A stretch of 64,000 bases of DNA. Source: a virus (taxonomy: Duplodnaviria; Caudoviricetes). The notes below the pieces were generated by a model. The model was not told where the DNA came from and ran no database searches. It saw only the letters and a list, made by a program, of their open reading frames with translations. A program made the position numbers and the translations under genes. The stretch is from IMG/VR virus record IMGVR_UViG_3300016476_001378. One strand, 5' to 3'. Below are positions 28,903 to 32,870 of this stretch, piece after piece (position 1 is the first letter of the stretch; each line of letters starts with the position of its first letter).

Positions 28903-30927
28903 TTACAATAAGTCAATAAGCAAGAAGGCAGACCAATAATTACTACCACCCGTTCTCACACATTCCAATTGTAACATTTCACCTGTGGTAACAACAACTT
29001 CGTTAAAATTCTCAAATGATTCGGATTCTTTGTTAATGTTTACTAAACCTTGATCAATTAAAACTTTGTTTCCACAATAAAGTTTGAATACCGCGTTTTG
29101 CTCTGTTGGCGCTTCATCAAACAATATCTCTAATCTTCTAATCTTCCAATTCACTTGAGCCAACGCACCTTGGGTTGTTAAATGTGGCACAGGAACTTTC
29201 ATTCTTATTTTTCTGTTATCAACTACCTCAGAGCCTGCAGCTAATGTCAAATAATGTGAAGGAATGTACTCTGATTTTGACTCTTTTTCAGTAAGAATAA
29301 TTCTTTTCTGCCCAGAGTTGAAAATTAGATGGTTTCCGTCAAACCAAATTTCACCACCTGTGAGTTCTGAAACAGATGGTGTGGGTTGAAATTTAATAGG
29401 GGCCTTTTTAGTTTCTGATAAAATTAATTGTGCTTTGTTTGCCAAAGTAACATCAGATACAAATGTATGATTGCCCTGCCAGAATGGATTAAAGTTAATG
29501 CTCTGGTCAAGATTGATAGATGTAATGCCTTCATTCTGCTGAATAACAACACCAGAGTTTTCATTGGTTTCTAAGTCTACAAGGATGTTTTTCCAAGTTG
29601 GGTTACTTCCTGGCCCCTGCGACATTAAGACTTGGCCAGACATGCCTTGCTCAAACGAAGCGAGTGATTGGTCATGCCCCTTTATAATGATCTGTCCAGG
29701 CGCAAAATCAATCAAATTAGCCCCTGTGCCACCATTTTCAATACCAACTACACCTCGGACATTCTGAGCGGTTCCAGTGATGTCTGAGGTAAGAAACGCT
29801 AAAGCTTTGCGCTGCCTTGATGTAGTTACAAATAAATAATTGCCATCAAACTCTACACCACCCTCAATTGCCTTTTCAATAAGGGGTAATCTTTGGAATC
29901 TAAGAGGGGGAAGAACAGGGCTCTTGCCAAGAGTAATAGGAAAATCAAAATGACCATCAAAACCAGATCTGTCAATTGGAGAATAAACAGGGACACCATT
30001 TTTAACCTGGAGATAGAATCCTTCGCAATTTTGTGTCGAAAGGGTCACTAAATTGTTATCAGAATCGGCATAAAGAATATCGCCCTTGTCATAAGCAGCA
30101 ATTCCAGTACCGCCCTGCGAAAGTGGCATTACACCCTTCAAACTATCTACAGAAAGCTGGCCATTAATTAAGCCAGATTCATTAACTGAGAAAACAGTTT
30201 TACCCGCTAATTCTACACTAAAATTAGGCTGCTTAACATTTAAGATAATTGCAGCAGAACTAGAAGACAAATCATTCTCTTTAAGCTTGGCATGATTTAA
30301 ACCAATTATTAATTGCTTCTCTCTGCTCTCAAAGCTCAAACCAGCTGCAAGGTTATTATCTCTTAGTTTGAAAACAGGATTGAATTCCTCAAATGTAGCT
30401 TGATTCCCATTGACATAAATGGTCTTAATACCTTGCATAAATTCTTTAGAAAATGATGCAAAATCTACCCAAGTCAAAGTTTTATTTTCAGCTAGTAAAA
30501 CTTTTCTTTCTTTAGGTATTGGCAAGAGATCTAATACTTCTTTGCCTGTGTTGATAAGGATGCCTTCTGTTGGGAATAAAGACCAGCCTGTACCACCTTT
30601 ACTAACAGGTAAAACACCCTCGGCTTGGTTCAAACTAACAGGGGCCCAATTTACTCCTCTGGAGGTAAATGTTAAAACGTAGTTATTTTTAGTGGGCTTT
30701 AAAACTTGCCAAGAAACACCATTGGAAACAATTAAAGAGCCTAAAGTGAAATTTTCATGACCTAAATTATTGATTGGAAAAGTTTGGTTTGCTGCGAAAG
30801 TTACAGCCTTTGCAAAGTTGTTTGTGCCTGTCCAAATGTTGTCGCCAGAGAAGTCTAAGCACAACTTGTTGTTATGTAAAATAATTCCATTACCCAGATT
30901 TTCTTCTTGCATTGGTAAATCAGCCAT
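28903..30927 (-). CDS. Putative fibre structural protein (674 aa), first gene of the cassette
   Basis: LPVSKGGTG, MPLSQGGTG and VGIENGGTG segments; C-terminus resembles that of the 3554-aa fibre. Confidence 0.7.
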   Translation of the reverse strand: MADLPMQEENLGNGIILHNNKLCLDFSGDNIWTGTNNFAKAVTFAANQTFPINNLGHENFTLGSLIVSNGVSWQVLKPTKNNYVLTFTSRGVNWAPVSLNQAEGVLPVSKGGTGWSLFPTEGILINTGKEVLDLLPIPKERKVLLAENKTLTWVDFASFSKEFMQGIKTIYVNGNQATFEEFNPVFKLRDNNLAAGLSFESREKQLIIGLNHAKLKENDLSSSSAAIILNVKQPNFSVELAGKTVFSVNESGLINGQLSVDSLKGVMPLSQGGTGIAAYDKGDILYADSDNNLVTLSTQNCEGFYLQVKNGVPVYSPIDRSGFDGHFDFPITLGKSPVLPPLRFQRLPLIEKAIEGGVEFDGNYLFVTTSRQRKALAFLTSDITGTAQNVRGVVGIENGGTGANLIDFAPGQIIIKGHDQSLASFEQGMSGQVLMSQGPGSNPTWKNILVDLETNENSGVVIQQNEGITSINLDQSINFNPFWQGNHTFVSDVTLANKAQLILSETKKAPIKFQPTPSVSELTGGEIWFDGNHLIFNSGQKRIILTEKESKSEYIPSHYLTLAAGSEVVDNRKIRMKVPVPHLTTQGALAQVNWKIRRLEILFDEAPTEQNAVFKLYCGNKVLIDQGLVNINKESESFENFNEVVVTTGEMLQLECVRTGGSNYWSAFLLIDLL

Positions 30928-30961
30928 TCTAAGTTCCCGAGGCCCCTTTTATTTAAATACA

Positions 30962-30989
30962 ATTTTACAGTTTTTCATAGCGCAACCCT
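30962..30989 (-). promoter_or_regulatory. Putative late promoter for the fibre cassette (AGG-N18-GTAAAAT)
   Basis: Recurring motif. Confidence 0.6.
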
Positions 30990-30998
30990 GCCGCATAA

Positions 30999-31026
30999 AG
31001 GAATAACTGATAAGAATCTATAAGAT
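30999..31026 (+). promoter_or_regulatory. Putative late promoter, divergent (AGG-N18-ATAAGAT)
   Basis: Back-to-back with the previous promoter. Confidence 0.55.
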
Positions 31027-31032
31027 GTACTG

Positions 31033-31289
31033 TGTGAAGGGATCAATCACCAAGGTATAGACAAGGTGCTGAGGTTGATATTCTTGAATTCAAAAAATTG
31101 AAAACTGAATTTAAATGACAATCTAAGACAATTGATTGGAGTTAACAATTTAGTTGTTAATGTCGCTGGGAATGTAACGACTAGGTGTAAATCCTTAGAT
31201 GCTCTGTTTTGCATGGGCAATCAGAGAGCATTCACAAAAATAAGACTTCTTCTCCTAAGAAGTCACGACAGATAGAAATTTTAAGGAGA
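31033..31289 (+). ncRNA. Candidate structured cis-regulatory leader RNA with anti-SD pseudoknot
   Basis: Eight compatible helices; closing pair TGTGAA/TTCACA; hairpin loop CTCCT complementary to SD AGGAG (31284-31288). Confidence 0.6.
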
Positions 31290-31297
31290 TAATTATA

Positions 31298-32116
31298 ATG
31301 CCAAGTTATCCATCTAACTTTATCAACGGTGCAGCTCCTGGTGTTCAGTCCAAGAACAACGTTAGCGACCGCATTGAACTTCGCATTGGTAACCAGACCA
31401 CAGTCGCATCCGCAGCAACTTACACAGTTAGAGTTGCTACAACTGCTAACATTACCCTTAGCAACACACAAACTATTGACACTGTAAGTGTTGTAGCTAC
31501 AGACAGAGTTCTTGTTAAGAATCAGAACACTGCATCAGAAAACGGCATCTACGTCTGTGTAAGTGGTGGTGCATGGACAAGAGCTACCGACTTTAACGAG
31601 AATTCCGAAGTTCTTCAGAACTCCAGAGTTTATGTTACAGCTGGCTCCGCAAACATTGCTAAGCAGTTCTACCTTTCAACCGACGAGCCAATCGTTGTTG
31701 GTACAACCGATCTTACATTCACTGCTTCCCCAACTGCAGTTTCTTACCCAAGTGCTGCACATTATCCAACTGATGCTAACGTTGGTGTTGCTGACATCAC
31801 CAATGCAACAGACACATTAGGCAACTTCGCAACTGTCCTTGCACACTTGAACAAGGAAATCACAGCTTACAACACAGCTTATGCTGCTCTTGATGCAGTT
31901 GGAAGCTATGCTGAAGCTAATGAAAGAAGTTTCTTGGCCAATATGGATTCAAACAAGATCAACAGATTGAAGTATCAGATGTTACTCGATGCTTACAGAC
32001 TTAAGAACTACACAGCTCTTATGAATCAGATCGTCTCAGTTGGCGCTCCATCTGCAAGCCGCTACCCATCAGGTTGGAACAGAGGCTGGAACTCCAGCGC
32101 TACTTCCTACTCATAA
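31298..32116 (+). CDS. Probably abundant virion protein with VRVATT..DRVLVKNQ..ENGIY..W.RATD domain
   Basis: Domain common in phage fibre/decoration proteins; strong AAC/TTC/TAC/ATC codon bias; AAGGAG SD. Confidence 0.75.
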   Translation: MPSYPSNFINGAAPGVQSKNNVSDRIELRIGNQTTVASAATYTVRVATTANITLSNTQTIDTVSVVATDRVLVKNQNTASENGIYVCVSGGAWTRATDFNENSEVLQNSRVYVTAGSANIAKQFYLSTDEPIVVGTTDLTFTASPTAVSYPSAAHYPTDANVGVADITNATDTLGNFATVLAHLNKEITAYNTAYAALDAVGSYAEANERSFLANMDSNKINRLKYQMLLDAYRLKNYTALMNQIVSVGAPSASRYPSGWNRGWNSSATSYS

Positions 32117-32144
32117 TTCAGTTTCTAAACAAAGGTTCAAAAAT

Positions 32145-32176
32145 AAAAATGGGGGCTTCTCGGAGCCCCCATTTTT
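32145..32176. terminator. Bidirectional intrinsic terminator
   Basis: AAAAATGGGGGCTTC-TCG-GAGCCCCCATTTTT. Confidence 0.85.
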
Positions 32177-32870
32177 ATTTGTCTCTATATTCTATTAATG
32201 CTTGTTTTGCATCCATAATTTTGTCTATAATCCAAACTTTGCCCTTATTATATTTTGGCGTATTTGGCATTTCAAATATATTATCCCAATCGGATCTTTT
32301 TAATGAAATAAACTTTTCTATGTAAGGATTCAGGTCTCTCATCATTTCTTTGTCTAGCTCTAAAAGATATTCTTCATAGTCTCGTTTGAATAAATCTTGT
32401 CTTTCATCACCAGCTAAATAAAGAGCTAAATCAAATTCAAACATACAATTAGAATTAAAAGATTTTTTAAATTTATTATCTTCTATAAATCCAGCTGGCT
32501 CATCATTGTATGTGTTGCCACCCAAGAGCTCTATGAATAAAATATTACATTCAAGCTCTAATTTATTGTGTATACCTTTGAATAATTCGTCATCACCAAA
32601 CAAACACCATTCTTTATTTAAATCAAATTGACTTACAGTTACAAATGTATCTTTGTAGCCCCTAAGATCTGTTGCCCATTTTACAGGCTCATGAAAAAGA
32701 TCTAGTGTTTCACAAATCTTTGAATAGCAATAATCAATTAAGCCATCATAAAATTCTGGATTAGCTATATATTCAATTTCATTTGTGATTTCATTGATTA
32801 AATATCTAGGTGTTGAAAATTGCTGGGCTGGGAGCACCTTGTAATAAGAAAGGTCTAAAAGCTCTTCCAT
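32175..32870 (-). CDS. Acidic hypothetical protein
   Basis: 231-aa ORF overlapping the upstream gene by 16 nt. Confidence 0.75.
   Translation of the reverse strand: MEELLDLSYYKVLPAQQFSTPRYLINEITNEIEYIANPEFYDGLIDYCYSKICETLDLFHEPVKWATDLRGYKDTFVTVSQFDLNKEWCLFGDDELFKGIHNKLELECNILFIELLGGNTYNDEPAGFIEDNKFKKSFNSNCMFEFDLALYLAGDERQDLFKRDYEEYLLELDKEMMRDLNPYIEKFISLKRSDWDNIFEMPNTPKYNKGKVWIIDKIMDAKQALIEYRDK

Follow-up and report, generated by a model that had tools for sequence, protein, structure and literature searches.

A 370-nt gap between two divergent genes (30928-31297) raises the question of whether the DNA in front of a virion-protein gene encodes a regulatory RNA and, if so, which part of it folds and what it acts upon. 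The window, a stretch of 64,000 nt from a virus of the Caudoviricetes, had been read before from its letters alone, and the first-pass annotation had proposed that a late promoter is followed by a leader of nine mutually compatible helices, ending in a hairpin whose loop would mask the Shine-Dalgarno sequence (SD) in a pseudoknot.

The locus, its gene and its relatives

The gap is bounded on the left by a 674-aa gene on the minus strand (28903-30927) and on the right by the leader's own gene, which encodes 272 aa on the plus strand (31298-32116). The window also encodes two fibre-like giants of 3554 and 1726 aa and homologues of an ExoV/Dda-type helicase and of PhoH, its G+C content ranges from 32 to 45%, and the metagenome contigs bearing orthologues reach up to 446 kb. 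The window looks like a portion of the genome of an uncultured jumbo phage.

Residues 43-146 of the 272-aa protein match PHROG families annotated as tail fibre or head decoration, and the protein matches PDB entry 9nx3_A, labelled 'capsid decoration protein' (E = 6.6e-7). Given these domain matches, to call the product a putative virion protein of fibre or decoration type is reasonable; the abundance that the first-pass annotation ascribed to it goes beyond what they indicate. Pfam holds no family for it, a literature search for 9NX3 returned unrelated papers only, and a combined DNA and protein search of cultured phages (INPHARED) found a single protein domain of about 100 aa in common. The AlphaFold model, of moderate to mediocre quality (mean pLDDT 59.8), places a beta domain (aa 40-146) before the long helices of a predicted coiled coil (aa 170-248). 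Since the model is mediocre and Foldseek found no PDB entry below E = 0.25 with it, we make no choice between a decoration protein and a fibre.

Full-length orthologues found by protein search fall into identity classes of 97%, 59-69%, 50-55% and about 40%, and on their contigs synteny is kept, with a divergent gene of 655-674 aa, a gap of 290-370 nt and then the virion gene. Sixteen distinct orthologous leaders from metagenomes, whose downstream proteins are 49-97% identical, were compared: 14 carry the core described below (alignment A3) and the remaining two (group C, L061 and L063) a reduced form, and a further alignment of 12 orthologous full gaps (A2) served to test the helices proposed earlier. 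A loose pattern scan of metagenomes yielded four extra genuine loci (L081, L097, L131 and L145), the other 116 of its 120 rows being chance matches in G+C-rich DNA; four matches from a stricter scan of species genomes were likewise due to chance and were rejected by the covariance model. Among the cultured phages of INPHARED, neither an orthologous locus nor a match to the neighbouring gene was found. IMG/VR holds only domain-level relatives of the 272-aa protein and none of the neighbouring gene, and searches of it with the hairpin and with the core pattern both returned no match. Within the window the element is single-copy (131.6 bits, the next best scoring 16 bits). In orthologues of about 40% identity (L073:2819-3003), synteny is kept and the gap, of 185 nt, has neither the core nor the CUCC hairpin; the leader element appears to be an innovation of one sub-clade.

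On the plus strand, a bipartite promoter-like motif, AGG-N14-ATCTATAA (30999-31023), keeps a constant 17-nt offset in all 15 orthologous gaps examined. A tandem second copy lies about 66 nt downstream (31064-31088), degenerate in the window and exact in group D and L197 (gaps L066, L065, L071 and L197 compared). The segment 30999-31026 had been put forward as a late promoter. Its motif is indeed conserved but, since it does not recur in the 64-kb window outside this locus, it is not a general late promoter of the phage, at least within these 64 kb. Further upstream, all orthologous gaps keep, with little or no change, the palindromic TATTTAAATA (30950-59) and the block AATTTTACAGTTTTT (30961-75). 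RNA contigs of the leftward 674-aa gene stop at 30932-30936, and the two observations combined suggest a T4-late-like promoter with a short leader for that gene. On the right, a bidirectional terminator (32141-32180; 18-bp stem, -25.4 kcal/mol, with an A run on one side and a T run on the other) sits between the convergent 272-aa and 231-aa genes and closes a monocistronic unit; the RNA contigs on that side end at 32122-32127.

A conserved core and a hairpin facing the SD

The leader folds more stably than shuffled sequences, with z-scores of -3.0 (31033-31300) and -2.96 (31076-31330), and every helix that the first-pass annotation had quoted can be drawn where it was placed. Their conservation differs. 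Across the 12 full gaps, 56% of alignment cells are paired for the closing helix TGTGAA/TTCACA (31033-38/31231-36), 65% for ATCAATC/GGTTGAT (31042-48/31073-79), 49% for GAATTCA/TGAATTT, 61% for ATCTAAG/CTTAGAT (31121-27/31194-200) and 46% for TTAACAA/TTGTTAA (31142-60), the last of which lies within an insertion private to the clade of the window. Because these values are only partly above those of slid controls (32-42%), the five upstream helices together with the closing helix are counted as not conserved. The 3' arm of the outer helix, moreover, uses TTC 31231-33, which is part of a conserved GCATTC strand. The nine-helix architecture is therefore not retained, its upstream and closing helices being either clade-specific or in conflict with the conserved fold.

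The 5' part of the leader (31076-31161, plus strand) is thus variable, with clade-specific hairpins such as GAATTCA 31086-92/TGAATTT 31106-12, helices paired in 46-61% of cells and an identity to orthologues of about 46-58%. Two candidates for another role of the gap were rejected. The loop of the first hairpin contains a GGA, but a CsrA-type site is ruled out because L198, L074 and L071 lack it. A small protein gene is contradicted by indels of 1, 2, 9 and 32 nt, located in hairpin loops, and the mini-frame ATG-TCG-CTG-GGA-ATG-TAA is lost in L145, L197 and L065.

Whereas the 5' half of the proposed structured leader does not hold, its 3' half is real, conserved and on the plus strand, and it contains a conserved core that the earlier reading had overlooked as a unit. 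GTCG/CGAC is conserved, with 95% of cells paired in the 12 gaps, as is the 8-bp hairpin (82%, six of eight pairs changed on both sides). A helix also exists where GCTCT/AGAGC had been drawn, but covariation places it in another register, as CTCTG 31202-06/CAGAG 31222-26.

The core (31162-31233) was found in 14 of the 16 orthologous leaders. It is laid out as a long-range helix, GAAUGY/RCAUUC, enclosing two stem-loops, P2 and P3, to which GUCG/CGAC would add a pseudoknot. The hairpin GUCG 31162-65/CGAC 31178-81 (31162-31181, plus strand) is invariant in 14 of 14 variants and holds in its loop GAAUGU 31170-75, the 5' strand of the long-range helix. Since this strand pairs with GCAUUC 31228-33, the two pairings together would form the pseudoknot, which is plausible but unproven, because GUCG/CGAC never varies and so offers no covariation. 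In the long-range helix itself (3' strand 31228-31233, plus strand), five pairs are invariant and the sixth is U·G in nine variants, C-G in three and U-A in two, with a mismatch in none, a pattern that is compatible with the putative long-range pairing and alone not statistically significant. GCAUU might instead pair with the AAUGC around the start codon, a possibility that was set aside: the two ACAUUC variants lose a pair there and keep a U-A pair in the long-range helix, and the AAUGC context is also accounted for by Met-Pro coding.

Within the long-range helix, P2 (UAGG 31182-85/CCUU 31193-96; 31182-31196, plus strand) is paired in 89% of cells with one-sided changes only; RNAalifold gives it three base pairs, the fourth pair being U·U in the window. 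P3 (CUCUG/CAGAG, 31202-31226, plus strand) comes in at least six kinds of stem (CUCUG, UCUGUU, CUUUGUU, CCUU, CUCUAC, AUCUAU, CUCUAUC), and its inner extension UUGC/GCAA is private to the clade of the window. The stem is always followed by one nucleotide and then RCAUUC, which fixes the register as CUCUG/CAGAG and not GCUCU/AGAGC.

Downstream of the core, an A-rich single-stranded linker of 9-15 nt, A-rich in all variants (ACAAAAAUAA, 31234-31243 on the plus strand), leads to the hairpin P4 (GACUUCUU/AAGAAGUC, 31244-31264, plus strand), whose loop CUCCU (31252-56) is the complement of the SD. In five lineages or more the P4 stem has been wholly replaced: the window has GACUUCUU, groups B and C have stems of GGCC type, and group D has CGAUCGC and UUAGCUGC. 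The loop varies from 5 to 13 nt. Nevertheless, as the first-pass annotation had pointed out for the window, loop and SD are complementary: the loop keeps CUCC and the SD reads AAGGAG in 16 of 16 variants, so that a conserved anti-SD sequence faces the leader's own SD throughout. Spacer, SD (AGGAG 31284-88) and ATG 31298 occupy 31265-31300 on the plus strand, with AAGGAG invariant and P4 at 18-20 nt from the SD in all variants.

RNAalifold independently predicts the long-range helix, P2, P3 and P4. On the 14 core-bearing leaders, 93.9% of cells are paired, as opposed to 33-41% in slid controls, and 12 pairs are changed on both sides, against 7.2 +/- 1.5 in shuffled alignments, none of 500 reaching 12. 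P3 supplies five of these pairs, out of its seven, and P4 supplies seven, out of its eight. Sequence conservation is uneven too: over the first 36 nt of the core, the window shares 94-97% identity with L066, L070 and L199, whereas in the same comparisons identity is 60-61% for the coding DNA, about 50% for the protein and about 52% for the 120 nt that precede the core. Judged from these identities, selection on the core is strong and the leader RNA, of about 140 nt, is much more constrained than the gene that follows it.

Both invariant, the CUCC loop and the SD put their pairing beyond the reach of covariation. In the window all five nucleotides of the 5-nt loop would pair with the SD, which is sterically tight for a pseudoknot, and in groups B and C the pairing is limited to 4 bp. 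Masking of the SD in nested ensembles is inconsistent among homologues, with a probability of being unpaired of 0.09-0.93. An alternative pairing of UCCUUAGA (31192-99) with UUUAAGGA (31280-87), of 8 bp in the window, is kept in only six of 14 variants and is lost by a single U-to-A change, which completes P2. This position, 31196 (column 48 of A3), flips repeatedly, with U in the window, L065 and the L066 group and A in group B, L097 and L071, and it may be a tuning site between SD-region pairing and P2.

Searched at gathering score, Rfam 15 gave no match across the whole window, in agreement with the earlier statement that no known RNA family was recognised; at E <= 10, the region 30900-31320 matched only mir-50, at a noise-level 21.5 bits against a gathering score of 43. 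No description of this leader RNA was found in the literature.

Transcription and possible modes of action

Read on the plus strand, 94.4% of cells are paired, compared with 87.5% on the minus strand, with 29 G·U cells. G·U pairs of P4 in L065 and L066 would become C·A mismatches on the minus strand; these pairs favour the plus strand as the probable RNA strand. Parts of the stretch are present in six metatranscriptome runs from freshwater, and the RNA contigs that map to 30400-32400 cover 31076-31635, 31076-31848, 31083-31519 and 31113-31407. Such contigs indicate joined sequence and not strand, true ends or expression level. In four runs they join the leader to the coding region, so that a transcription start downstream of 31265, which would have left the leader out of the mRNA, is excluded as the sole start, and an RNA contig of a relative likewise carries the core. 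The contigs of two runs both begin at exactly 31076, 45 nt beyond the start that the ATCTATAA box predicts, a weak hint that the 5' end lies there or slightly upstream; 31076 could also be a processing site or an alternative start. No RNA contig covers 30936-31075, which takes in the outer-helix arm 31033-38 and the ATCAATC arm 31042-48, or extends past 32141, an absence of cover that does not prove an absence of transcription. The element is a real, conserved and transcribed cis-acting folded 5' mRNA leader of one clade of uncultured aquatic jumbo phages.

How might it act? Among the features of the leader, the CUCC loop alone is directed at the ribosome site in all homologues, and for this reason we adopt the reading of a translational throttle or operator, in which loop and 30S subunit would compete for a strong SD and the core would dock, or fold for, a factor. 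We would give this reading an even chance. The loop of P4 would pair with the SD through 4-6 bp in an H-type pseudoknot; this pairing would compete with the 30S subunit and throttle initiation at a ribosome-binding site that is otherwise very strong. The invariant core may then serve as the docking site of a trans-acting factor that strengthens or relieves the block, a phage or host protein being likelier than a metabolite. A strong SD at optimal spacing and contigs of high depth speak for high expression of the gene and against its repression.

Whether the core goes further and acts as a sensor depends on how it communicates with the SD. As in a riboswitch, the core 31162-31233 is a conserved, structured, aptamer-like domain in a 5' UTR, it folds as a compact junction with a pseudoknot, and many of its unpaired nucleotides are invariant. 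These properties, together with the nearby SD and the missing Rfam match, could make it the aptamer of a new riboswitch class through which a small molecule controls translation by way of the anti-SD loop. We searched by eye for a pairing mutually exclusive with the core, P4 or the SD, such as the expression platform of a riboswitch would supply, and found none; P4 is a free-standing hairpin in every variant. As no exclusive pairing ties the core to P4 or the SD, nothing shows a switch. The controlled gene, moreover, is structural and not metabolic, and the element precedes one gene family only, in one phage clade. In group C (L061:2868-3003 and L063:1267-1402; protein 59% identical) an unrelated plain hairpin has been substituted inside the core: GUCG/CGAC, P2 and P3 are lost, whereas GAAUGU/ACAUUC, the A-rich linker, the CUCC hairpin, the spacer and the SD are retained. 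That the interior was replaced and the rest kept argues against an essential role for a specific ligand pocket. A small-molecule riboswitch is therefore quite unlikely, and the broader proposal that the core is a sensor, whether of a new riboswitch or of a protein-operator class, which couples the virion surface protein to an intracellular signal via the anti-SD loop, is unlikely as well, if a little less so.

The group C leaders, which retain only a generic helix, a linker and a hairpin, also bear on another explanation, according to which the leader is a module for stabilising or processing the mRNA. Core and hairpin, the latter just 5' of the ribosome footprint, would shield a long-lived late message from decay that depends on its 5' end or from a nuclease that cuts at the SD, and the pairing of CUCC with GGAG would protect the SD and not regulate it. 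P4 is constitutive, has no alternative partner and reaches to -34 relative to the AUG, on the border of the 30S footprint, and the contig start shared by two runs at 31076 hints at a defined, possibly processed, 5' end. Simple stabiliser hairpins, on the other hand, need neither some 36 nt of near-invariant sequence nor a fixed loop tetramer, and we regard this explanation as rather unlikely. Far less probable are two readings that take the conservation out of the mRNA leader. That the 31244-64 hairpin is an intrinsic terminator of leftward, minus-strand transcription, its SD complementarity being incidental, could be proposed from the TTATTTTTGT that follows the stem on that strand, from the T-rich tract present on this side in all orthologues and from a consensus scan, which calls a terminator. 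Yet the G·U pairs of L065 and L066 would turn into C·A mismatches, the hairpin has no minus-strand gene ending upstream of it, 32141-80 already provides a strong bidirectional terminator, the RNA contigs read through the hairpin, and the invariant CUCC loop would be left unexplained; such a role is very improbable. The invariant, promoter-like blocks at 30950-31023 could similarly speak for a DNA-level site, namely a regulator site or the promoter architecture of the divergent pair, or for a separate small RNA. We give this little credence, given the compensatory changes in P3 and P4, the confinement of indels to hairpin loops and the RNA contigs that bridge core, hairpin and coding region.

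Comparison with known leader RNAs

To our knowledge, the regulatory RNAs of uncultured jumbo phages are almost unexplored. On the comparative evidence assembled here, the leader represents an uncatalogued family of RNAs, distinguished by its layout in two modules and associated so far with one gene in one phage clade. An RNA of about 140 nt that shows compensatory changes and is present in environmental RNA is small enough for in vitro or reporter tests. Binding of a factor by the core would show how large phages meter a virion surface protein post-transcriptionally, and would add a new pseudoknot fold to those catalogued; if the sensor reading is true, no sensing RNA is known to have been described before for a structural gene of a phage. 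As a stabiliser or throttle alone, the leader would represent another uncatalogued case of an ordinary mechanism.

Three groups of known leaders invite comparison. In the leader of E. coli rpsO, the gene of ribosomal protein S15, a hairpin loop pairs at the ribosome-binding site and the protein-stabilised pseudoknot blocks productive initiation. The phage leader shares with it a hairpin loop complementary to ribosome-binding-site sequence, but there is no similarity of sequence or fold, nor an Rfam family match; the phage loop complements the SD core itself and is accompanied by a separate, pseudoknotted domain upstream. Riboswitches of the preQ1-II, SAM-II and SAM-V type use the SD as a strand of the aptamer pseudoknot. 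Like them, the phage leader places an H-type pseudoknot with an embedded hairpin and near-invariant unpaired nucleotides in a 5' UTR near the SD. Its SD, however, is situated some 50 nt downstream of the core, and the loop that targets it belongs to a separate hairpin; the gene encodes a virion protein and Rfam gives no match. Finally, the operator of T4 gene 32, a site of translational control, begins with a 5' pseudoknot, from which an A/U-rich stretch extends to the ribosome-binding site, and gp32 is a single-stranded-DNA-binding protein that spreads along unstructured RNA. Both are phage mRNA leaders in which a 5' pseudoknot precedes an A-rich or A/U-rich stretch; the jumbo-phage leader, by contrast, interposes a stable hairpin with an anti-SD loop and precedes the gene of a structural protein.
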